Assembly: GCA_023132435.1 (NCBI GenBank)
Contig: JAGLYF010000190.1
Location: 1 to 58,234 of the forward strand
Length of the DNA: 58,234 nucleotides
Direction of reading: 5' to 3'
DNA from: Calditrichia bacterium
GTDB lineage: Bacteria > Calditrichota > Calditrichia > JAJRVZ01
Under the pieces are notes generated by a model that was given only the letters and a program-made list of their open reading frames with translations, had not been told where the DNA came from and ran no database searches. Shown one piece after another: positions 2,955 through 55,375 of this stretch (position 1 is its first letter; each line of letters begins with the position of its first letter). The position numbers were made by a program, and so were the translations under genes.

Positions 2955-2995
2955 GTATATTTCTGAAAAAAAATAAGAACCTGATCTTCCATAAA

Positions 2996-3140
2996 CCACG
3001 GATTAACACGGAAAATTACACGGATTTAATTTATTTAAGGATGATTTGGCTTTAATAATTTTATACTTTTCATAAAGTCATATTATTTTTTCTAAATGCT
3101 TTATTTTCAATACTCTGTGTACATCCGTGCCCTTCCGTGG
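2996..3140. repeat. CCAC-word fold-back element, CACGGA variant
   Basis: Left arm is ccacggattaacacggaaaattacacgg (2996-3027). Right arm is ctctgtgtacatccgtgcccttccgtgg (3113-3140). The arm words are complementary. Confidence 0.8.
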
Positions 3141-3293
3141 TGAATAATTTCATCTAAAATAATTATTAAAAATATCAATTTTATCTTCAAGATATGAAAT
3201 TAAGTGGACGATAATACTTAACAAAGTGGAAACATTACCCAAAAAAGATTATATGCTTTCGGGACAGATTTAAAAGAAGGAAGGAAGGCGTAG

Positions 3294-3567: not shown

Positions 3568-4749
3568 ATGTCTTCTGAAGTTCCAAAAATATTAGTTATT
3601 GAAGATGAAGATCAGGTCAGACAATCGTATGACGATATGTTTTCTTTTTTTGGATATGAAGTTGAGTCCGTCCCTAATGGCCGTGAAGGTATGTCACGGA
3701 TTACTAAGAAGGATTATGATATTGTCGTAACTGACCTCAATATGCCGGAAATGAATGGCATCGAGGTTTTAAAATATATAAAGAAGAAAAAACCCTATAT
3801 TGAAGTTATCGTTATTACCGGTTATGCCACTCTTGAAAATGCAATTGAGGCGATGAAGGTCGGCGCCTATGATTATTTTGCAAAACCGATAGATATCGAA
3901 CATGTCCGTATCGTCCTCACAAAATGTGTGCAAAAAATACAATCCCGAAAAGAAAATGAAGAACTCCGTTCATTAACTCAAAGATTAAAAGAACTCAATG
4001 AACTGAAAGATAAATTTATTACGATAACTAATCACGAATTACGCACACCTGTGACAGTCTTAAAAGGATATATTGAACTAATTGATTATTTTCTCGAAGA
4101 CAACCGGAATGAAAATATTAATGAAGCGATCGAAATTGTTACTGAAACCATGCGTGAATTGGTGGGAATCGTTGAGCAGATGCATGATATCTCTTCATTT
4201 GATTATGGTAAAAAACGTCTGGTAACGGTTGATGTGGAGATTGAGAAGATACTCGAATTGATATATAAAGAAATGAAAGTATTATTCGAAAAACGTAAGA
4301 TTAAGTTTGATCTTAACCTCGATAGCTCTGGTATGATTGTATCTGGTGATGATAAACAGCTAAAAAGAAGCTTGCGTGAACTCCTGCAAAATGCTCTCAA
4401 ATTTACTCCGGAAGGTGGCCATGTTGAGTTAGAGTATTCTATAAACAAAAAAAATAAAAAATTATACATTAAGGTAAAGGATGATGGAATAGGTATTCCA
4501 GGTGATAAATTAGATCTTGTATTCGAGCCTTTTTATGAGGTCCAAAATGTGATAAATCATATGACATCGAAAACTGAGTTTATGGGAGGGGGTATTGGTT
4601 TAGGTTTGACTCTTGCCAAAGAGGTTTTTGAATCTCATGAAGGGGAATTATTGTTGGAAAGTGAGGAGAACCGTGGTAGCACCTTTACAGTTGTTTTACC
4701 CTATAAAGATCCTCAAAATCAGGATAATGAACCATCCGCTACTGCCTAA
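3568..4749 (+). CDS. REC-first hybrid histidine kinase (receiver + HisKA + HATPase_c, no TM or sensor domain)
   Basis: Receiver domain (ILVIEDE...TDLNMPEMNG). H-box ITNHELRTPVT, N-box LLQNALKFTPEGG, G1 VKDDGIGIP, G2 GGGIGLGL. Confidence 0.9.
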   Translation: MSSEVPKILVIEDEDQVRQSYDDMFSFFGYEVESVPNGREGMSRITKKDYDIVVTDLNMPEMNGIEVLKYIKKKKPYIEVIVITGYATLENAIEAMKVGAYDYFAKPIDIEHVRIVLTKCVQKIQSRKENEELRSLTQRLKELNELKDKFITITNHELRTPVTVLKGYIELIDYFLEDNRNENINEAIEIVTETMRELVGIVEQMHDISSFDYGKKRLVTVDVEIEKILELIYKEMKVLFEKRKIKFDLNLDSSGMIVSGDDKQLKRSLRELLQNALKFTPEGGHVELEYSINKKNKKLYIKVKDDGIGIPGDKLDLVFEPFYEVQNVINHMTSKTEFMGGGIGLGLTLAKEVFESHEGELLLESEENRGSTFTVVLPYKDPQNQDNEPSATA

Positions 4750-5645
4750 TAGGTAGTGATTTTTTTTATTGAACTATATCGCTTGTTTAATTCTTCTTTT
4801 TTTAACCCGGCCAGTCGTCTGAAAGAAAAATCTTCCACACAAAATGATGCAACAACAGTTCCATATATGATTGCTTTCCTGAGTTCTGAATCTTCAAACC
4901 CCTCATTTTCAGCTAAATATCCTACAAATCCTCCGGCAAAGGAGTCACCTGCTCCGGTTGGATCAACCACTTTTTGAACCGGAAAAGCGGGAGCGACGAA
5001 ATAAGAATCCTTACTCATCAGAATGGCTCCATGTTCCCCCTTTTTTACCACGACAACGTCAGGTCCCATTTCCAAAATTTTTTGACCACCACGGGTCAGG
5101 TTTGTCTCTCCCGTTAATTGTTGGGTTTCTTCATCATTTAATATAATAATATTTGATTGTTTAATTACCTCATCCAGGGCAGATCTTTTTCCGGATATCC
5201 AAAAATTCATTGTGTCTGTAACAACTAATTTTGGATCCGTGATTTGATTTAAAACCTGCAACTGCAGATCCGGATCAATATTTGCCAGAAAGACGATATC
5301 GCTGTTCCTGAAATGTTTAGGAATCTCGGGCTTAAAGTTTTCAAATACATTCAGATGGGTAAACAATGTATCTCGTTTATTTGGATCATCGTAATAGCGT
5401 CCCCCCCAGCGGAATGTTTTACCTTTTTCTGTATATAAACCATCAAAATTTATCGGCCGGTTTTTACCAAAATCGATCACCTTCAAATCAAAATCCTCCC
5501 CGACAACACCTACCACATTAACCGGGGCGAAAAAACTTGCAGCATTACTAAAATAAAGAGCAGAACCACCTGGTGAGTCAAGAAAAGACTGATGTGGGGT
5601 CTCTACTGTGTCAAAGGCGATGGAACCAACAACTAATATATTCAT
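4746..5645 (-). CDS. PfkB-family carbohydrate/nucleoside kinase
   Basis: C-terminal PfkB signature DPTGAGDSFAGGF. I prefer the ATG at 5645 (MNILVVGSIAFD, preceded by AAAGGA) to the ORF-track start at 5696, which overlaps argS. Confidence 0.8.
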   Translation of the reverse strand: MNILVVGSIAFDTVETPHQSFLDSPGGSALYFSNAASFFAPVNVVGVVGEDFDLKVIDFGKNRPINFDGLYTEKGKTFRWGGRYYDDPNKRDTLFTHLNVFENFKPEIPKHFRNSDIVFLANIDPDLQLQVLNQITDPKLVVTDTMNFWISGKRSALDEVIKQSNIIILNDEETQQLTGETNLTRGGQKILEMGPDVVVVKKGEHGAILMSKDSYFVAPAFPVQKVVDPTGAGDSFAGGFVGYLAENEGFEDSELRKAIIYGTVVASFCVEDFSFRRLAGLKKEELNKRYSSIKKITTY

Positions 5646-5656
5646 AAATGTTCCTT

Positions 5657-7291
5657 TTACATTTTTTCCGGCGCTGTGATACCCAGAATCTGACAACCAT
5701 TATAGATTACAACTCTTGTTGCCTCGCATAATGCCAAACGTGCTTGAGTTAATTGTGTATCATCACTAATCACCCGGCAGATAGTATAAAATTTATGGAA
5801 TAGTGTAGCTGTATCTATCAGGTAATGTACAAGCCGGTGGGGTTCAAAACTATGGGCACTGTATTCAACGGTAGCAGGGAAATCTATTAAATGTTTAATG
5901 AGATCGAGTTCCTCTTCGGAATCCAATAAGGTAAGCTCGGGATTCTTCTCAAAGGTAATGTTTTTTTCCTGACCAAATCTGACGATACTGCATATTCGGG
6001 CATGGGCATACTGTACATAAAAAACCGGATTTTCATCTGACTGAGTTTTTGCCAGAGTGAGGTCAAAATTAAGATGAGAGTTCATATGACGCATAAGAAA
6101 AAAGAATCTGGTTACATCCTCTCCAACTTCATCGATCAGCTCATCAAGAGTAACAAAATTTGCTTTGCGTGTGGACATCTTAACCTTTTCAGTTCCTTCC
6201 ATCAGAGTTACAAATTGGTGAATCAGTACTTTGATTTTAGATTCATCATATCCCAGGGCTTTAACTGCCAACAGAACATCAGGGTAAGTATCGATATGAT
6301 CGGCGCCAAAAATATCTATTATCAATTCAAAACCGCGTTTTATTTTTTCGACATGGTAAGCAATATCGGGGAGGCGATATGTTGGTTCACCGCTACTCTT
6401 TATTATAACCCGATCCTGTTCTTTACCCAGCTTACTGGTCAGAAACCAAACTGCTCCATCCCGTTCATCAACCAACCCTTTTTCTCCGAGTGCCGAGACT
6501 ACTTCATCTATCTTTCCCTCGTCATAAAGAGACTTTTCATTATAAAATACGTCCATCCGGAAATTCAGCCGGGCAATTGTATTTTTAATATCTTTAAAGA
6601 CTTCCTCTTCTGCTTTTGTTGTAAATATTTCCGGATTTGTTTCTTTTTTTAATTTTTCACCATTCTCATCCCGGATCTGCCGGGCTATATCGATGATATA
6701 ATCCCCCTGATAATAGTCATCAGGAAATTCAATTTTTTCCCCCAACTGCTGCAAATAGCGCAGTCTGACTGAATCACCCAGAATTCGCATTTGCCTTCCA
6801 GCATCATTAAAGTAATATTCACGGGTTACATTATAACCGATAGTTTCAAAAAGGCGGGCAATTGAATCACCTAAAACAGCCTGACGGCCATGGCCTATGG
6901 TCAGAGGTCCGGTTGGATTCGCACTTATAAATTCTACCTGGGTCTTTATACCTTTACCCTGATCAGACTGACCATATTTTTCTTTCTTCTTGATGATATC
7001 ATAAAGTTGGATATAAAAAGAATTCGGGGAAATAAAGAAATTTAAAAAACCCGGTCCGGCAATATCGATTTTTTCAATATATTGAGGATCTATTGGTATG
7101 AAGGACTGAATTTCGGTTGCTATTTGTCGGGGATTGGCTTTTAGAATTGTTGCCATTTGCATGGCGATATTGGTTGATAGATCGCCAAACTGTTTCTGTT
7201 TTGGTTTTTCAAAGTTTAAGGAGAGGTCTTTAACACCCTTGGATTTCAAAAATCGTTCAATTTCATTACGAATATATTGCTCAGCCTGCAT
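5657..7291 (-). CDS. argS: arginyl-tRNA synthetase
   Basis: 544 aa with the class I motif SANPTGPLTIGHGR, an ArgRS-like anticodon-binding C-terminal domain and a terminal Met typical of ArgRS. Confidence 0.95.
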   Translation of the reverse strand: MQAEQYIRNEIERFLKSKGVKDLSLNFEKPKQKQFGDLSTNIAMQMATILKANPRQIATEIQSFIPIDPQYIEKIDIAGPGFLNFFISPNSFYIQLYDIIKKKEKYGQSDQGKGIKTQVEFISANPTGPLTIGHGRQAVLGDSIARLFETIGYNVTREYYFNDAGRQMRILGDSVRLRYLQQLGEKIEFPDDYYQGDYIIDIARQIRDENGEKLKKETNPEIFTTKAEEEVFKDIKNTIARLNFRMDVFYNEKSLYDEGKIDEVVSALGEKGLVDERDGAVWFLTSKLGKEQDRVIIKSSGEPTYRLPDIAYHVEKIKRGFELIIDIFGADHIDTYPDVLLAVKALGYDESKIKVLIHQFVTLMEGTEKVKMSTRKANFVTLDELIDEVGEDVTRFFFLMRHMNSHLNFDLTLAKTQSDENPVFYVQYAHARICSIVRFGQEKNITFEKNPELTLLDSEEELDLIKHLIDFPATVEYSAHSFEPHRLVHYLIDTATLFHKFYTICRVISDDTQLTQARLALCEATRVVIYNGCQILGITAPEKM

Positions 7292-11311: not shown

Positions 11312-11486
11312 TACTCTATTTTCCGATATCAGTTGTATTTTTTAAAATATAGATAAATGGTTATATTATTTCAAAATATTTCTGATTTTTTGTATGAATT
11401 CAAATATTTACTATGACTGTTAATTAGCCTGAATTATTCAAATTAAAATGTGATGAAGATTATAAGTAACATATAATCAAAGATTT

Positions 11487-11726
11487 AATTCCCCCTTTGC
11501 TGGGGCTGTTGCAGAATCGATAAAATTAGCCGTAAATGTCATACCTGCGAAAGCAGGTATCCATGGATCCCCGCTTGCGCGGGGATGACAACTTGGGTTG
11601 GGGTATAAATTCCCGCTGGAGTTTACCCCGTACTTGATGCGGGGCGGGAATGACAATTTAAGACTTTTTCAGCACTAAAATTGTTAAATATTGATAATCT
11701 GCAACAGCCCCTGCTAAGGGGAAATT
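11487..11726. mobile_element. MITE-like element with 29-bp terminal inverted repeats and internal tetraloop hairpins
   Basis: The TIRs aattccccctttgctggggctgttgcaga (11487-11515) and tctgcaacagcccctgctaaggggaaatt (11698-11726) match 26/29. Internal hairpins are atacctgc-GAAA-gcaggtat and atccccgc-TTGC-gcggggat. No ORF is present. Confidence 0.7.
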
Positions 11727-11809
11727 AAACTTTTGAATCATCTTTCCGATGTTTCTAATAATAAATTATCGGAAGTCAGAAGAGAAACAAGAGTAAATAT
11801 GGAGAAGTA

Positions 11810-14333: not shown

Positions 14334-14392
14334 GAGGTATAGAGGTATAGGGGAATAAGGGAATAAGGTATAGGGGTATAAGGTTATAGGTT
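14334..14392 (+). repeat. 8-nt-periodic purine/T stutter tract (GAGGTATA-like, 7 units), C-free
   Basis: The units are gaggtata gaggtata ggggaata agggaata aggtatag gggtataa ggttatag. There is no C on the plus strand from 14320 to 14398. The tract fills the fabH-lipA spacer. Confidence 0.85.
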
Positions 14393-15842: not shown

Positions 15843-16010
15843 AACCGCAAAAACACAAAGGAATAAATCACAAATAACAAATTTCAAATGACAAATAAAT
15901 TCCAATTTCAAATTATCAAAATGATTACTATAAGTGATTTTATATTTTGGTCATTGAGTTTTGATGTTTATTTGAGATTTGTTATTTGAAACCTTGGCAT
16001 CTTCGCGGTT
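15843..16010. repeat. 168-bp AT-rich fold-back with CAAAT/ACAAA word arms
   Basis: The outer ends aaccgcaaaaacacaaagg and ccttggcatcttcgcggtt pair. The inner words caaataacaaatttcaaat and atttgagatttgttatttg are also complementary. Confidence 0.75.
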
Positions 16011-18946: not shown

Positions 18947-18974
18947 GTAGAGAGGTAACATGTTACGTCTCCAC
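18947..18974. repeat. degenerate third copy of the TGTAGAGACG palindrome
   Basis: The sequence gtagagaggtaacatgttacgtctccac aligns to the copies at 28724 and 40432. It carries one compensatory pair change and three disruptive changes. Confidence 0.6.
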
Positions 18975-27757: not shown

Positions 27758-28720
27758 ATGGAAGGATTAAGAGAATCGGCAGAGATAGCCCTGCGCGACT
27801 GTATGGCATTAAAAGAAAATGAAACTCTACTGGTTTTAACCGATGATAAAACGACAGAAATAGGTACGACTCTTTTTGAAGTTGGCAAAAAGCTGGCTGG
27901 CGACTCTGTACTTCTTGTCATGCCGGAACGGGAGGTTAATGGTCAGGAGCCTCCAGACGCAATTGCGGAATTGATGACAAAATATGATGTGGTGATATGT
28001 CCAACCGCTAAATCTTTAACCCATACAGAAGCAAGACGTAATGCCTGCAAAGCAGGCGCCCGGGTAGGTACGATGCCGGGGATTACGAATGAAGTGATGA
28101 TCCGTACGCTCAAAGCTGATTATCATGGGATTGCAGAGCGCACCTATCAATTAAGCAAAATCCTTGATGAAGCTAATGGGGTACATATTACAACAGCAAA
28201 GGGAACAGATATTGTCATCCCAATTAAGGGTATAAAAGCTATTTCGTCAACCGGGCTTGTTACGGAAAAAGGATCATTTGGAAATTTGCCGAGCGGTGAG
28301 TCTTATCTGATGCCTGCTGAAGGTCAAACCAATGGTGTTTTTGTCGTTGATGGTTCATTTGCAGGTGTTGGAAAAATTAAAGATATGCCAATCACACTTA
28401 CCGCCGAAAATGGTTTTGCCACGAAAATCGAAGGTGGTAAAGAAGCGGTAAAATTAATTGAATTGCTTGAACCCATGGGCAAAAAAGCTTATAACATTGC
28501 AGAGTTAGGAATAGGCACCAATGATCAGGCAATTGTGACCGGCAAGATTCTCGAAGATGAAAAAGTGATGGGAACCATACATATCGCTCTTGGAAATAAT
28601 CTTAGCATGGGTGGAACTTGTAATGTCGGTATTCATCTGGATGGTGTTATTCTTGAACCTACGGTTAGGGTGGATGGTAACCTGATCATGGAAAATGGAA
28701 AATTGAAGATTGATGATTAA
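27758..28720 (+). CDS. aminopeptidase (M29/AmpS-like family)
   Basis: 320 aa whose blocks resemble the thermophilic aminopeptidase family (N-terminal LVLTDD..., C-terminal GTIHIALGNN...GIHLDGVI). The assignment is from memory of the family. Confidence 0.6.
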   Translation: MEGLRESAEIALRDCMALKENETLLVLTDDKTTEIGTTLFEVGKKLAGDSVLLVMPEREVNGQEPPDAIAELMTKYDVVICPTAKSLTHTEARRNACKAGARVGTMPGITNEVMIRTLKADYHGIAERTYQLSKILDEANGVHITTAKGTDIVIPIKGIKAISSTGLVTEKGSFGNLPSGESYLMPAEGQTNGVFVVDGSFAGVGKIKDMPITLTAENGFATKIEGGKEAVKLIELLEPMGKKAYNIAELGIGTNDQAIVTGKILEDEKVMGTIHIALGNNLSMGGTCNVGIHLDGVILEPTVRVDGNLIMENGKLKIDD

Positions 28721-28721
28721 A

Positions 28722-28759
28722 TTTGTAGAGACGTTGCATGCAACGTCTCTACAAATTTT
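28722..28759 (+). terminator. perfect 34-bp palindrome (TGTAGAGACG family) + T4; terminator-like, possibly also a regulator site
   Basis: The palindrome tttgtagagacgttgcatgcaacgtctctacaaa is followed by tttt and starts 2 nt after the aminopeptidase stop. It lies ~130-160 bp upstream of the sigma-54 promoter. Confidence 0.5.
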
Positions 28760-31034: not shown

Positions 31035-31070
31035 CCTGGATAATTCATTTCTCAACGACGTAGCGACTAT

Positions 31071-31143
31071 CCACGAATTACACGAATTAATGCGAATTAC
31101 ACGAATTGATCTAAGAATTTTTAAAAGAAATTCCTGGACCCAT
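31071..31143. repeat. CACGAATT-word element with a degenerate right arm
   Basis: The left arm ccacgaattacacgaattaatgcgaattacacgaattg is followed at the far end by aaattcctggaccca. It ends at the stop codon of the gene at 31144-31605. Confidence 0.75.
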
Positions 31144-33576: not shown

Positions 33577-33604
33577 TTCTTACCTTCTTATAATAAATTT
33601 TATA

Positions 33605-33743
33605 CCACGAAGGACACGAAGGTCACGAAGATAATTTATAATTTAGAGTAATATTATGATCGGTGATTTTGTAGTCGCGTCGCTACTTCTCTACATTGCC
33701 TAATATTGTTAAATTCTATAAAAAGATCTTCGTGCTCTTCGTG
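33605..33743. repeat. CCAC-word fold-back element, CACGAAGG variant
   Basis: Left arm is ccacgaaggacacgaaggtcacgaagat. Right arm is atcttcgtgctcttcgtg. The word variant is complementary between arms. Confidence 0.85.
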
Positions 33744-33856
33744 TTTAAATTAGATTCTTCCTGAATCACCGGTGTTGTGAATTTAATTAAAAATAATGAC
33801 CGGGATGTTTGTATACAATAAAATAAGTAAAAAGTGGAGTAAATTCTAGCTTTTGT

Positions 33857-33885
33857 TTGCGCTAATCAATAGAGAAACATATATT
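33857..33885 (+). promoter_or_regulatory. putative sigma-70-type promoter (TTGCGC-17 nt-TATATT) for the ABC ATPase gene
   Basis: TTGCGC at 33857-33862, a 17-nt spacer and TATATT at 33880-33885, 62 nt upstream of the ATG at 33947. Confidence 0.4.
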
Positions 33886-33946
33886 TATTAATATTGCATC
33901 ATTTCAAGATGGTCTTATTTACGATATCAATCCAGGAGGTTAATAA

Positions 33947-37509: not shown

Positions 37510-37548
37510 TTTGGATTCCTTTTGATAAAAATGGTAATGTAAAAAAAA

Positions 37549-37727
37549 CCACAGATTACACAGATTGCACAGAAATATTGAAAAAACAATGGATTAGATA
37601 AAAAATCATGAAAATTTTTTTAATTTTAAATAGAATCTCAATTACTTCCACGTTTTTATTATAATTAATTATCTTCGGTGTTCTCGGTGGTTAATTTATA
37701 TTCTGTGAAAATCGGTGTAATCAGTGG
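37549..37727. repeat. CCAC-word fold-back element, CACAGATT variant
   Basis: Left arm is ccacagattacacagattgcacagaa. Right arm is ttctgtgaaaatcggtgtaatcagtgg. The arms are complementary except for single mismatches. Confidence 0.85.
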
Positions 37728-37858
37728 TTAAATAATTCTTTTGTTTGCCCCGAGCCCTCGGGGCGCTATGAATAGATCAAACTAATATATTATTTTTTTT
37801 ATTTAATCGCTAATAATATTATATTTGCCGGATAATAAAAGTATTTATCAGCCTTGAT

Positions 37859-37963
37859 AATTCGTGAACCAATTCGTGTTCATCCCGTGAGATATTATTG
37901 AGCATTGTCCAGATTAATTCAAATAACCTTGTTTATCTCACGGGATAAATTCGTGGACTAATT
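37859..37963. repeat. right-arm-type AATTCGTG words plus a cccgtgagat/atctcacggg hairpin, abutting the truncated gene
   Basis: aattcgtgaaccaattcgtgtt (37859-37880), the inverted repeat 37884-37893 / 37935-37944, then aaattcgtggactaatt (37947-37963). Confidence 0.8.
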
Positions 37964-37971
37964 ATTAAATT

Positions 37972-38157
37972 CTAAAAAAAGATCGCAGGAGAGGGTTTTA
38001 TGATACGTGTTTTTTCTATCGTATTGACTTCTGTATGTTCAATAATCAGTTTTGTATTGCCAGCCATCAAATAATCCATGGTTGCAAGTTTTTCATTATT
38101 TATTTCAATGTAGAATGAACCCTTTTTGCCATCAAAAAAGTGTTGTATTTCTTGCAT
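37972..38157 (-). pseudogene. 3'-truncated remnant of a small GNAT-like (YjdJ-type) acetyltransferase gene
   Basis: The N-terminal ~45 aa (FYIE...MDY...LIIEHTEV) fit the ~90-aa family as I remember it. Similarity stops right after HTEV and none continues in the other frames. Repeat-element ends flank the remnant. Confidence 0.4.
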
Positions 38158-38220: not shown

Positions 38221-38335
38221 GGGTCCACGAATTACACGAATTTTATAACCCTCCCCATCCCCGAAGGCTCGGGGACTTCCCCTCCCTTACGTATAAGGGA
38301 GGGGAATATGGGGTGGATTAATTCGGGATGACAAA
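38221..38335. repeat. CACGAATT left end fused to C-rich multi-hairpin module
   Basis: gggtccacgaattacacgaatttt is followed by the hairpins ccccga-aggc-tcgggg (38259-38274) and cccctccctta-cgta-taagggagggg (38279-38304), then gggatgacaaa. Confidence 0.8.
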
Positions 38336-40431: not shown

Positions 40432-40503
40432 TGTAGAGACGTAGCATGCTACGTCTCTACAATAAATCTACTCTACAATAAATCTACGTCTCTACAATAA
40501 ACC
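40432..40503. repeat. 30-bp perfect palindrome (TGTAGAGACG family) followed by tandem triplication of its right half
   Basis: The palindrome tgtagagacgtagcatgctacgtctctaca spans 40432-40461. The unit (acgt)ctctacaataaatct then occurs three times through 40503. Confidence 0.85.
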
Positions 40504-41352: not shown

Positions 41353-41558
41353 CTGGATGCTGGATGCTAGATACTGGATGTTAGACGTAAGACGCTAGAA
41401 GCAAGACGCCCCTACATTTCACGTTTGAAGTTTCACGTCTTAAATCTTGTTCCGATGCTCTGCGTCGGAACATACTGATGTAATTTAGGGCTACGACGCG
41501 GAGCATCGTAGCCAGTAACAATTTGTTCCCCCTTAGTAAAGGGGGGTAGGGGGTTGTT
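41353..41558. repeat. composite: 7-nt stutter arm (CTGGATG/TTAGACG words), two interlocking hairpins, C5/G5 core
   Basis: ctggatgctggatgctagatactggatgttagacgtaagacgctagaagcaagacg, hairpins at 41449-41471 and 41489-41513, and the core ttcccccttagtaaaggggggtagggggttgtt at 41526-41558. Confidence 0.8.
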
Positions 41559-44203: not shown

Positions 44204-44293
44204 ATGAATGTCCTTCTTTTCCTGACTTTTTCGTGAAGCATCATAATCTACAAACCGGATCCTATAAACTTCAACTAATCGGATGCTTTTTTT

Positions 44294-44514
44294 CGGTTCT
44301 CGTTACTCGTTTCTCGTCTCTCGTTACTCGTTTCTCGCCGCTCGATATCGGTTGGCAAACTCAGTTCCCCCTTAATCCTCCTTTCCCGCACTCGCGGGAC
44401 TCAGGACAGGCTCTTTCCTAAGAGGGAGCAGATTTTTATCAACCATCATACTGCAGTAAGTATCGAGAAACGAGCATCGAGTATCGAATTCCAAGTTCCG
44501 AATTCCGAATTTCC
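44294..44514. repeat. 7-nt stutter-arm element (TCTCGTT/ACTCGTT words) around an expanded C-rich core
   Basis: The left arm has 7 units of nCTCGnn (44294-44351). The core is ttcccccttaatcctcctttcccgcactcgcgggac...taagagggag. The right arm is tatcgagaaacgagcatcgagtatcgaa followed by ttccgaa words. Confidence 0.85.
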
Positions 44515-46402: not shown

Positions 46403-46436
46403 AGTCTAAATTTTACTTATCCGCAATAATTCTTTT

Positions 46437-46529
46437 CCACGAATTACACGAATTTGGCACGAATTAACACGAATTTTATTAATCTAATAATTAATTCGTG
46501 AAATTCGTTTTCATTCGTGAAATTCGTGG
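46437..46529. repeat. CACGAATT-word fold-back element, archetype copy
   Basis: Left arm is ccacgaattacacgaatttggcacgaattaacacgaatttt, followed by a 15-nt AT loop. Right arm is aattcgtgaaattcgttttcattcgtgaaattcgtgg. Confidence 0.9.
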
Positions 46530-46571
46530 ATCAAATAACTTGATATCTTTGCGATAATGTAAACTCCCTTT

Positions 46572-47186: not shown

Positions 47187-47480
47187 ATTAAAATTATTTT
47201 GATTCTGGTTTTATTTTATGAGGTAGCCCATCAGCCCGCCCCAACATTGGTCATTGAATCTTCCTTGTTGAATATTGGGCCTTCTATCCTTGGGAAACTA
47301 AATCTATCTCATTGTTATTCTGTTATAGGTCATCCCTATGGGACTTCATGTTTTGGGGATGTCTGAATTACCCCGGACTTCCGTCCGGGGCTAGTCTTGG
47401 GCCATCCCTTCGGGATTCTTATTTTGTAACTAATCTAGTTTACGGATTAAATAAATACATAAATCCGTGGTCTATTACAA

Positions 47481-47589
47481 CCCCCTTAGTCCCTCCTTCG
47501 GCTTCGCTCAGGATAGGCTCTTTTTTAAGGGGGAGATGAATTTTTATCATCCGGTATCTCGTATCGAGAAACGAGTACCGAGTACCGAT
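47481..47589. repeat. half-copy (core + right arm) of the 44294-type element
   Basis: cccccttagtccctccttcggcttcgctcaggataggctcttttttaagggggag...tatcgagaaacgagtaccgagtaccgat aligns with 44367-44488. Confidence 0.8.
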
Positions 47590-49136: not shown

Positions 49137-49162
49137 TCGGGTATTCCGCTAAAGTTTTTTTA

Positions 49163-49373
49163 CCACGGAATGCCACGGAAAAGAAACACTGATTGGTTCA
49201 CGAATTTGTCCACGAATTACACGAATTGGACACGAATTATCACGAATATTTCTTAATAATTCCTTGATAGTTTGTGTGATTCGTGGATAGAAATGAATTA
49301 TCCAGGATAAATAAGACATTTTATAAATTCACTCAAAATATAATTTTCCGTGTTTCTCCGTGTGATTCCGTGG
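49163..49373. repeat. nested fold-back elements: CACGAATT-type copy inside a CACGGAA-type copy
   Basis: The outer arms are ccacggaatgccacggaaaag (49163-49183) and ttttccgtgtttctccgtgtgattccgtgg (49344-49373). The inner element (49198-49306) runs from ttcacgaatttgtccacgaattacacgaattggacacgaattatcacgaat to gtgtgattcgtggatagaaatgaattatccagg. Confidence 0.85.
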
Positions 49374-49408
49374 TAAAATGTTTTTCTTCAAAATCTATTA
49401 TTTATAGC

Positions 49409-49534: not shown

Positions 49535-49630
49535 GGATTCCCGCTTCCGCGGGAATGACAATTTGTGAGAAAGTCACAGTAATATTGTGAAATACTGTGT
49601 ATTCTGCAACAGCCTGCTCTGGCGGAAATG
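49535..49630. repeat. right-half copy of the 11487-type MITE
   Basis: ggattcccgcttccgcgggaatgacaattt, ~39 nt of spacer, then tctgcaacagcctgctctggcggaaatg parallels 11641-11726. It ends 35 nt before the next ATG. Confidence 0.7.
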
Positions 49631-52581: not shown

Positions 52582-52617
52582 AGCCACCTCAAGATCGATT
52601 GGGGTGGCTTTTTTTTT
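52582..52617 (+). terminator. intrinsic terminator
   Basis: Stem agccacctc / ggggtggct with a 10-nt loop, followed by T8. It is immediately followed by a CACGAATT element. Confidence 0.65.
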
Positions 52618-52619
52618 AT

Positions 52620-52727
52620 CCACGAATTACACGAATTTCCCACGAATTAACACGAATTTTTTTAAAATTCTTTGACCAGTTCGTGTAATTCGTACTAATT
52701 CGTGAAATTCGTGGACCAATTTGTGGA
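52620..52727. repeat. CACGAATT-word fold-back element
   Basis: Left arm is ccacgaattacacgaatttcccacgaattaacacgaattttt. Right arm is cagttcgtgtaattcgtactaattcgtgaaattcgtggacc followed by aatttgtggat. Confidence 0.9.
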
Positions 52728-52816
52728 TAAAAAACTTGAAAATTGGTGAATGGTTTATATTCTCTATTTTAGTATATTAAGGGTGTTTGTCGTTATCCTT
52801 TTATCATATAATTTTT

Positions 52817-54022: not shown

Positions 54023-54070
54023 TGTTCCCTTAACCCTTCACCATGATGTGCTATTTTCAAGTTTTTTTAT

Positions 54071-54313
54071 CCACGAATTACACGAACTATTCCATAAATA
54101 TTTAACCTGATCTATAGCATAAATTTCTTGCGCAAAGGCGCTAAGACGTAAAGAAATAATTATTTATAAGGAATAGATTTAATTTAAAATTCAATTTCAC
54201 AATCTTGACATAAATTATTCAAAAATAAATCGTTGCGTCGCTGCGTCGTCGCGAGAAATGAATTATCCCGGTTAGTAGATATTCTTAAAATTCGTGGACT
54301 AATTCGTGGACCC
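54071..54313. repeat. long CACGAATT-type element (243 bp)
   Basis: The left end is ccacgaattacacgaac. An internal gagaaatgaattatcccgg motif is shared with 31036 (reverse) and 49287. The right end is aaaattcgtggactaattcgtggaccc, 3 nt from the stop codon of the next gene. Confidence 0.8.
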
Positions 54314-55233: not shown

Positions 55234-55375
55234 GTGTTCAAAGGTTCTGGGTTCTGGGTTAACCTCTGAACCTTGAACAGTGAACCCAAAACCTGTGAAC
55301 ATGGCAAACACCCCCCTTTGTCCCCCCTCAAGGGGGGAATTCCCGGGGTAAACCCAGAACGGTGAACTCTGAACC
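55234..55375. repeat. 7-nt stutter-arm element (GGTTCTG / CAGAACC words) around a C5/G5 core
   Basis: gtgttcaaaggttctgggttctgggtt, then the core aaacacccccctttgtcccccctcaaggggggaatt (55307-55341), then aacccagaacggtgaactctgaacc. It fills the whole spacer between two co-directional genes. Confidence 0.85.

Follow-up and report, generated by a model that had tools for sequence, protein, structure and literature searches.

Inverted arrays of tandem CAC words in a Calditrichota chromosome belong to cross-phylum hairpin families with matching arms and lie beside GxxExxY nuclease genes in other genomes

Results

Short hairpin-forming elements lie scattered between the genes of the stretch analyzed here, contig JAGLYF010000190.1 of a Calditrichia bacterium, the whole 58,234 nucleotides (nt) of which we call the window. 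The window is a chromosomal fragment of 38% G+C with ordinary housekeeping and signalling genes, and we place it in the Calditrichota on the strength of an ArgS that shares 70% identity with the Caldithrix abyssi protein. The elements occur at a density of about one per 5 kb, all of them intergenic, and share one build. The left arm consists of 2 to 5 tandem copies of a nonpalindromic 8-nt word, CAC followed by five variable bases, with a period of 9 to 11 nt, or about one helical turn, and the right arm consists of their reverse complements. A manual count gave 8 two-armed elements with loops of 20 to 200 nt and 3 one-armed arrays (Table 1), and the window also holds several elements of the same architecture made of other word classes. 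One word, CACGAATT, is found 30 times where 2.5 occurrences are expected and where 100 shuffles gave at most 8, and as a variant it recurs at least 7 times in the window.

The element that drew our attention, E3, lies, like E4 to E6, between divergent genes, here a 5'-nucleotidase gene on the minus strand and an ABC ATPase gene on the plus strand. Its left words at 33606 to 33631 read CACGAAGG-A-CACGAAGG-T-CACGAAGA, their partners at 33727 to 33743 read TCTTCGTG-C-TCTTCGTG, and its predicted fold departs from shuffled controls with a z of -4.4 as RNA and -4.2 as DNA. At E1, arms of the CACGGAxx variant stand on both sides of 2997 to 3139. The original prediction held that each copy uses a word variant of its own and that both arms of the copy use the same one. 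The sequences on which it was based are present, with arms at 33606, 2997, 49164, 46438, 52621, and 54072/54289. For the element at 37549, the left arm indeed reads CACAGATT, but the right arm is of CACCGA, CACAGA, and CACTGA types and the match is imperfect. Moreover, the frame CCAC...GTGG, which had been taken as invariant, gives way to CGC-words in L141 and L144 (L-numbers are labels of comparison loci or contigs).

Within a copy, the two arms match far more often than chance allows. Arms were detected by tandem repetition within the arm only, and each left arm was paired to the nearest right arm with the variant ignored. Of the 81 pairs so obtained in all the sequence analyzed, 73 differ at no more than one of the five variable positions (permutation p <= 5e-5), and the matching persists when GAATT/GAATT pairs are left out (p = 1e-4). 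In the window alone, all 8 two-armed elements of the manual table are matched, for which chance gives 48/40320 = 0.0012, and the automatic count (n = 6) gives p = 0.03 to 0.07. The cleanest test came from viral-collection loci picked by a minority left arm alone, with the right arm at most 330 nt away. The right arm carried the variant of the left arm in 10 of 10 AGATT loci and 20 of 22 GAAGG loci, and in none of them was it GAATT, the globally commonest variant. The prediction had named a genome-wide census with many mismatched elements as the result that would count against it; most pairs match, but about 10% do not, and solo arms are common. Mismatched or mixed arms were found in L002, where CACGAATT is paired with AATCTGTG, in L119, where it is paired with AATCCGTG, in L128, where a single arm contains two different words, and in L100, L165, L207, and L212; one phage cassette site mixes AGATT, GGATT, and GAATT words.

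The variants are not private to single elements. In a species-representative genome collection, at least 120 stretches, drawn from about ten phyla, contain the exact 18-mer CCACGAATTACACGAATT. Among the matches listed, the sources include Bacteroidota (about 30 Flavobacterium isolates), Chloroflexota, Acidobacteriota, Planctomycetota, Calditrichota, Cloacimonadota, Armatimonadota, and others, and a complementary arm lies 20 to 200 nt from almost every listed match. The minority variants AGATT, GGATT, and GAAGG were found in 44, 16, and 46 further loci, respectively, the 46 being viral-collection loci that contain the 18-mer of E3. Loops are unrelated between copies, and arms are conserved, the first inter-word spacer included. 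A second copy of the CACGAAGG variant lies at 4313 to 4418 of L134, whose strain has an ArgS 98% identical (ACCACGAAGGACACGAAGG...CTTCGTGTTCTTCGTGT); its first 20 nt and its spacers are identical to those of E3, its loop is unrelated, and the locus is different. Since the CACGAAGG variant recurs in this way, the variants form multicopy lineages, the outcome that the prediction itself had set against variants arising in place. Several variants coexist within one genome. We conclude that the arm-to-arm covariation is real and that the word variants define multicopy families shared by many loci and many phyla, rather than one dialect per element.

Between strains with 96 to 99% identity, copies appear, disappear, or give way to other sequence, as seen in syntenic contigs from strains with 76 to 99% protein identity. 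The 170 nt nearest the promoter of the ABC ATPase gene are conserved in all strains, and the distal part, where E3 lies, is different in every strain. The 96% strain (L122) lacks the element and has a GTAAAAA-type array instead, and the 91% strain (L123) has a single word, CGACGAAGGA, and another hairpin repeat where the window has a three-word array. In the 84% strain (L124) only the TGTAGGGACGT palindrome and flanking bases homologous to the E3 loop are found, without arms; thus, the E3 arms bracket older sequence. The E1 site of four strains with 98 to 99% ArgS identity contains an unrelated stretch of about 95 nt, with a 215-nt miniature inverted-repeat transposable element (MITE) in L130, L132, and L135 and without it in L134. 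L122 has a different hairpin repeat at the E2 site, and the orthologue of the E8 site in L128 contains only CCACGAATTACACGGAATAA. A metagenome scan for relatives of the 49- to 52-kb region returned only two short contigs. We note that in L134 an IS110-family transposase insertion and unrelated genes (4667 to 5740) replace the synteny upstream of ispD.

Arms decay after insertion without compensation. The surviving orthologues (31072 versus L123 and 52621 versus L129) differ in word number and by point changes (CAC to TAC, CAA, or GCG; CGTG to CCTG). The L123 orthologue of E2 has 5 left words and an intact AAAATTCGTGGAC; in the window, E2 (31072 to 31135) has 4 left words, and its outer right word has changed from CGTG to CCTG, with the outer left word unchanged. 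The L129 orthologue of E10 contains TAC and CAA words, and its right arm has decayed. No compensatory change in the opposite arm was found in either comparison.

Elements are frequently, and symmetrically, nested in the loops of other elements. E9 lies within E8, further cases are found in L026, L017, L082, and L043, and in L057 three word classes are nested as three layers. The nesting of CACGAATT within CACGGAA seen in E8 and E9 is repeated at L026, a Planctomycetota locus.

In other genomes the arms keep company with a nuclease gene. Genes of the GxxExxY family, of the PD-(D/E)XK type, lie beside or between arms of one matching variant in 13 of 13 cases examined, 8 of which were picked by protein similarity alone. 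At the genome loci, which had been picked for the 18-mer, and at the strain loci, every GxxExxY gene or remnant abuts arms: CACGAATT arms enclose the gene in their loop in L086, complete hairpins stand on both sides of it in L014 and L113, and an arm adjoins it in L069. In L130, from a 99% relative of the window strain, a 38-amino-acid (aa) C-terminal remnant lies inside a CACGAATT loop (hidden Markov model [HMM] E = 5e-11). Longer forms of the element, with the nuclease between matching arms, are found in L086, L140, L142, and L144. Because the genome loci had been selected for the repeat, we drew an independent sample by a tblastn search of plasmids with the nuclease protein, which gave 8 hits in seven phyla or classes. 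Word arrays stand at the gene borders in 8 of 8, each with its own variant and with the two sides matching; the variants include CACAGAGG, CACAGAGA, CGCAGAGG, CGCGAAGG, CACGGATT, and others (Table 1).

In the plasmid and chromid records L138, L140, L142, and L144, the gene is codirectional inside the housekeeping gene pairs fabD-fabG, radA-FAD protein, and ade-mannose-1-phosphate guanylyltransferase, and the spacer is just 35 to 60 nt and is made of word arrays. In L151 and L152, Anaerolineales-type metagenome contigs (positions ~1730 to 2700), the GxxExxY cassette stands between two copies of about 105 nt from the 5' end of wzt, wzt itself (465 aa versus 428 aa in L145) contains an in-frame CACGGATT hairpin, and a chimeric open reading frame (ORF) of 91 aa runs through the upstream wzt copy.

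The nuclease is about 125 aa long in bacteria and belongs to TIGR04256 (E = 1e-43), with invariant G..E..Y and catalytic D...E.K residues. An AlphaFold2 model (mean predicted local distance difference test score [pLDDT], 93) came closest, in a fold search, to PD-(D/E)XK proteins of the Cas4/lambda-exonuclease type, a generic likeness with template modeling (TM) scores of 0.5 to 0.6, and a sequence search against solved structures gave no match. One search returned more than 8000 close homologues. PDDEXK_3 is reported to have been transferred repeatedly between divisions and is listed with function unknown (PMC3424549); our literature search found no paper that ties GxxExxY or PDDEXK_3 to such repeats and none that explains the GxxExxY family. 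Nuclease clade covaries coarsely with word class. Identity is 46% within a class versus 34% between classes (permutation p = 0.002, n = 12, phylogenetically nonindependent proteins). In a pair of 76%-identical nucleases that share a wzm-wzt context on Anaerolineales-type contigs, each is flanked by three hairpins, all CACGAATT in one case versus all CACGGATT in the other.

Phage contigs have arms of the same kind around other genes. At a Prevotella-type phage site, the order TTTTAACGA, CCAC-words, ATG...stop, words-GTG, TTCAAAA encloses an HNH endonuclease, an N6/N4 DNA methylase, or a 63-aa Cys-rich ORF (Table 1).

Within the window, E5 and E6 flank a remnant of a GNAT gene with their arms pointing outward, the arrangement found around the GxxExxY gene of L155. 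The remnant (38023 to 38157, minus strand) encodes the N-terminal 45 aa, 76% identical to a GNAT acetyltransferase of 94 aa whose gene L126 has intact, and lies between outward CACGAATT arms at 37948 to 37958 and 38223 to 38243; the 164-aa neighbor gene of L126 is absent from the window. Word arrays therefore stand at the borders of deletions or rearrangements.

Other repeats share the intergenic space. A 260-nt MITE-like element at 11477 to 11736 has 39-nt terminal inverted repeats (TCAAAGATTTAATTCCCCCTT...) and encloses two hairpins of the GTCAT(A/C)CC...GGGATGACA type, and the 215-nt MITE at the E1 site of close strains is related to it. Palindromic hairpins of the GTCATTCCCGCGGAAGCGGGAATCC type, which we take to be a repeat seen in many phyla and a source of small spurious ORFs, lie at 11537 to 11590 and ~49575 to 49610, in L123 at the site orthologous to 33577 to 33946, and in L129, and they share the hypervariable slots between genes with the CAC-word elements. 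Perfect palindromes of the form TGTAGAGACGT(T/A)GCA-TGC(A/T)ACGTCTCTACA lie at 28719 to 28758, 40432 to 40501, and 18947 to 18974 and in L124 and L126; tandem copies follow the unit at 40449 to 40501, and a degenerate copy, intact at the orthologous site of relatives, forms the core of the E3 loop (33684 to 33700). Arrays of varied heptamers or octamers (CTGGATG / GCTAGAC / GTAAGAC, GTACCGA, GAGGTATA) lie at 41353 to 41440, 47561 to 47588, and 14334 to 14389 and in L129 at 1700 to 2300; some have inverted partners with similar words in another order, which in L129 bracket about 400 nt. The only Rfam match in the window is an Acido-Lenti-1 small RNA at 47371 to 47417 on the plus strand (37.5 bits versus a gathering threshold of 37), outside the elements.

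Table 1. Tandem-word elements of the window and word arrays that flank genes in other genomes (positions without a locus label are those of the window)
Feature	Location	Strand	Description
E1	2995..3141	no strand	CACGGAxx variant; left CCACGGATT, CACGGAAA, CACGGATT; right ACTCTGTG, ATCCGTG, CTTCCGTGG
E2	31069..31135	no strand	CACGAATT variant; 4 left words, third mutated to GCGAATT; right arm decayed, AAATTCCTGGAC
E3	33603..33745	no strand	Left CCACGAAGG-A-CACGAAGG-T-CACGAAGA; loop 95 nt; right TCTTCGTG-C-TCTTCGTG
E4	37547..37728	no strand	Left CACAGATT twice and CACAGAAA; right mixed, CACCGAAG, CACCGAGA, CACAGAAT, CACCGATT, CACTGATT; imperfect arm match
E5	37857..37958	no strand	3 right-arm-type AATTCGTG words only; interrupted by separate hairpin 37879-37949; abuts truncated GNAT remnant
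E6	38223..38243	no strand	Left-arm-type words only, GTCCACGAATTACACGAATT
E7	46435..46531	no strand	CACGAATT variant; 4 left and 3 right words
E8 (outer)	49161..49375	no strand	CACGGAA variant; 2 left and 3 right words; E9 nested in loop
E9 (inner)	49196..49288	no strand	CACGAATT variant; 5 left words, degenerate right arm
E10	52612..52734	no strand	CACGAATT variant; directly after terminator hairpin of upstream outer-membrane-protein gene
E11	54069..54311	no strand	CACGAATT arms at 54072/54289; loop ~200 nt with further inverted GCGCAAAG / CGTCGC-type word array
Other word class, same architecture	15865..15988	no strand	AAATAAC / TCAAATG words and complements; the middle layer of the L057 nest
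Inverted heptamer-word arrays	44289..44487	no strand	TTTCTCG / CGAGAAA
Inverted heptamer-word arrays	55243..55367	no strand	GGTTCTG / CAGAACC
Phage cassette sites (IMG/VR)	L165 9460..10030; L207 11492..11800; L212 848..1740		Arms abut cargo start and stop codons; same flank in Prevotella metagenome-assembled genome L030
Bacteroides GxxExxY flanks	Plasmid sample		CCACAGAGGA CGCAGAGGA CACGGAGGA ... CTCTGTGA CCTCTGTG TCCTCTGTGG
Bernardetia GxxExxY flanks	Plasmid sample		CACAGAGA
Gemmatirosa GxxExxY flanks	Plasmid sample		CGCAGAGG hairpins on both sides
Sphingomonas GxxExxY flanks	Plasmid sample		CGCGAAGG; gene between fabD and fabG
Treponema and a fusobacterium GxxExxY flanks	Plasmid sample		CACGGATT
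Prevotella and Persicobacter GxxExxY flanks	Plasmid sample		Other word classes

Discussion

How the two arms of an element come to match may be a matter of descent. We propose that the elements are cargo-less derivatives of selfish-gene cassettes, comparable to MITEs or to REPINs (hairpins of two inverted repetitive extragenic palindromic [REP] sequences), that they form variant families with fast turnover, and that their arms match by descent, a proposal to which we give about an even chance of being right. The window copies would be members of a cross-phylum class of short hairpin-forming repeats with inverted tandem-word arms. Each would have arisen by the copying of a progenitor that was symmetric already, so that matching would stem from that descent and not from compensatory evolution locus by locus, and after insertion the arms would decay. 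Full-length relatives would carry a selfish gene between or beside matching arms, typically GxxExxY in bacteria and an HNH, methylase, or other gene in phage contigs, and the elements would be the boundaries or the cargo-less remains of such small cassettes. Matching probably also reflects a need, when a copy is made, for symmetric binding of a protein or for a hairpin or cruciform. We infer that the nuclease or another factor recognizes the tandem words or the extruded hairpin and drives the copying or homing of the elements, and hairpin loops would be a preferred target of insertion.

Several observations weigh against descent from nuclease cassettes. The genome loci were chosen for repeat content, which leaves the plasmid sample as the unbiased one for the nuclease link, and the correlation of nuclease with variant involves the 12 nonindependent proteins mentioned above. 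The 58-kb window has no GxxExxY gene, and when six-frame translations of its loops were searched with an HMM no remnant turned up, the one in L130 being the only remnant detected. In no case did an identical nuclease occur in two genomic contexts: contigs with P0161, P0193, or P0200 have one context each, and 13 contigs with P0161 share theirs. Many arrays are one-armed. No clean insertion (empty) site or target-site duplication was found at E1, E2, or E3, where we saw replacements only, and no direct repeat flanks E1 or E3. Finally, 939 kb of viral loci contain word arrays and no GxxExxY gene, and the arms there bracket other cargo and mix variants. Thus, the arms may be generic cassette boundaries rather than nuclease-specific sites.

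A bolder form of the descent model, which we put forward tentatively and hold to be possible rather than probable, is that the hairpins and the GxxExxY nucleases make up an unrecognized cross-phylum mobile system like that of REPINs and the REP-associated tyrosine transposase (RAYT). The nuclease would read the 8-nt words, one per helical turn, with its specificity diversifying along with the variant, and the cargo-less hairpins would be nonautonomous progeny that insert preferentially into existing loops. REPIN-RAYT is, by analogy, the functionally nearest model for the word hairpins. Like REPINs (Bertels & Rainey 2011, PMC3116915) and GTAG/CGTC-tagged REPs (PMC3733652), the elements are short, nonautonomous, hairpin-forming inverted doublets of high copy number and intergenic location, two inverted units form a long hairpin, and sequence families are tied to a cognate enzyme gene flanked by repeats. 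They differ in that a REP is an imperfect palindrome of 20 to 40 nt with a GTAG/CGTC tag, whereas here the units are nonpalindromic 8-nt tandem words that start with CAC and lack the tag. Moreover, the partner of REPINs is an HUH Y1 transposase and not a GxxExxY PD-(D/E)XK nuclease or other cargo, and REPIN-RAYT is reported to be mostly vertically inherited, whereas the present words are shared across phyla. No RAYT turned up among the window ORFs scanned, a part of all window ORFs. Because the REP palindrome, the tag, and the HUH transposase are all absent, we do not count the elements as members of the REPIN-RAYT family.

Two other kinds of mobile sequence are similar in part. Like MITEs, the elements are small, multicopy, and without coding capacity, have terminal inverted repeats, and differ in presence between strains, but target-site duplications and clean empty sites are missing at E1 and E3, no parent insertion sequence with a DDE transposase was found, and the loops are unrelated between copies where MITE interiors are usually conserved. 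The PeSL (promoter early stem-loop) cassettes of T4-type phages, in which conserved short motifs with a stem-loop flank variable and often selfish genes at fixed positions and mediate the exchange of modules, resemble the sites in L165, L207, and L212 (PMC2839356, PMC4122927). PeSL, however, is a direct promoter-plus-terminator motif and not an inverted tandem-word array.

The original prediction offered two causes for the matching, selection for base pairing and a mechanism that makes one arm from the other. The arms do covary and the hairpins are strong, but we favor neither as the main cause. Under the first, complementarity would be kept for a stem in the transcript, which might be processed by RNase III or insulate and loop out a cargo ORF as in the intervening sequences of 23S rRNA, stabilize mRNA, or sequester a start codon. 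The intervening sequences are said to consist of a small selfish-looking ORF between stem-forming inverted repeats, located in rRNA and excised by RNase III. The stems of the elements are long and nearly perfect, as the z of -4.4 at E3 illustrates, arms in L165, L207, and L212 abut the start and stop codons of the cargo exactly, and the left arm of L144 abuts a start codon. Across five gene-bearing elements, G.U pairs number 12 in the sense versus 5 in the antisense orientation, a weak signal, and in 3 of 5 the sense strand has the greater stability. Copies without cargo, however, have no bias toward a transcribed strand (G.U pairs, 19 sense versus 30 antisense), E3 and E4 to E6 lie between divergent genes, and solo arms are frequent. 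A T-run before the hairpin and an A-run after it are not those of intrinsic terminators, and no Rfam family matches the elements. Moreover, selection for pairing does not fit orthologous copies that decay uncompensated, and it leaves unexplained why the tandem words of an arm are alike and why the same word is found across phyla. We consider an RNA-level structure unlikely, with such support as it has confined to the gene-bearing copies.

Under the second cause, the arms would be made alike in place, one arm being templated from the other or all words from a single one, by fold-back synthesis, quasipalindrome template switching, or slippage with gene conversion. Such homogenization would fit the two 76%-identical cassettes that share a host context, in one of which the six arms of three hairpins are all CACGGATT and in the other CACGAATT throughout, as well as the word number that varies among orthologues (4 versus 5 at the E2 site) and the single CGACGAAGGA of L123 where the window has a three-word array. 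But rapid replacement by a currently active family also explains the cassette pattern. Variant and inter-word spacers recur together at unrelated loci and in other phyla, which fits inheritance of whole arms, the spacers within one arm differ (A, TTGG, AA), unlike the products of simple slippage, and orthologous arms diverge independently and uncorrected. Homogenization in place therefore seems to us rather improbable as the general cause, and a templating or homogenizing step is possible as a source of new variants.

A third alternative is that the words are cooperative sites for a host protein, either a nucleoid-associated protein or a global regulator, and that inverted arrays provide symmetric binding. 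The period of about one helical turn and the intergenic location would suit it, and similar sequences have been so interpreted. Paired "putative global regulator binding sites" of classes 1 to 3 were described in the one genome of Geobacter metallireducens as arrays of 3 to 5 tandem 7- to 8-nt words with an inverted partner array at variable distance, at tens of loci, and were read as sites for a regulator of the IHF/HU type (Aklujkar et al. 2009, PMC2700814). The window arms likewise contain 2 to 5 tandem words, paired on opposite strands at variable distance and at many loci, and reverse complementation turns the class 2 consensus TCTCCGTS[Y] into the CACGGAGA word (window 49355; L109); thus, this kind of element has been seen before, though not explained. 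The nuclease link, the nesting, the turnover between strains, and the other phyla are absent from that description (PMC2700814). Presence, absence, and replacement between 96 to 99% identical strains at otherwise conserved promoters argue against a conserved regulon. Moreover, no such regulator is common to the roughly ten phyla in which identical words are found, several variants occur per genome, elements nest in each other's loops, and one copy is in frame within a coding sequence. We regard host-protein arrays as very unlikely. The original prediction had set protein sites aside on another ground, that they would not need matched dialects, and the link to nuclease genes that are variant-specific makes that argument weaker.

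Several known features were rejected as well. Intrinsic terminators, bidirectional ones included, do not fit because the T-run precedes and the A-run follows the hairpin on both strands; the stems are also A+T-rich, and E3 lies between divergent genes. The terminal TTATCCACG resembles the DnaA box TTATCCACA, but inner words agree at only 6 of 9 positions, and copy number, nesting, and turnover are unfitting. CsrA-type GGA motifs and Shine-Dalgarno mimicry fit some variants (CACGGA, GAAGG) and not CACGAATT. An integron attC site, with R''/L''-L'/R' boxes (RYYYAAC...GTTRRRY) and an IntI integrase nearby, would be unlike arms that read CCAC...GTGG with tandem words, and no integrase was found among the window ORFs scanned. 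Nothing in Rfam 15 or a tRNA scan overlaps the elements. Finally, the cyanobacterial short tandemly repeated repetitive (STRR), Nezha, and small dispersed repeat (SDR) elements do not apply, as the period is 9 to 11 nt and not 7 and the host is one of the Calditrichota. The STRR repeats of heterocystous cyanobacteria are reportedly tandem short intergenic words in 7-nt units, for which inverted pairing is no defining feature; the window does contain heptamer arrays, separate from the CAC-word elements.

The observation that the arms match is itself sound, and the nuclease link is the part most worth following up. Word repeats form a visible share of the intergenic DNA of many environmental phyla, account for much of the difference between near-identical strains, and reach into operons, coding sequences, and phage genomes. 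Our search of the literature for the exact arm sequence found no matching paper, and the regulator-site account from Geobacter is the only description we found. If the link between nuclease and repeat is true, the GxxExxY protein family would have a role, and the common "unexplained intergenic repeats," with their small pseudo-ORFs, would have an explanation. It would also offer a second, independent case in which to study how populations of short repeats last alongside a cognate enzyme. Moreover, a nuclease directed to its target by a word that is short, repeated, and evolvable could be of practical interest.

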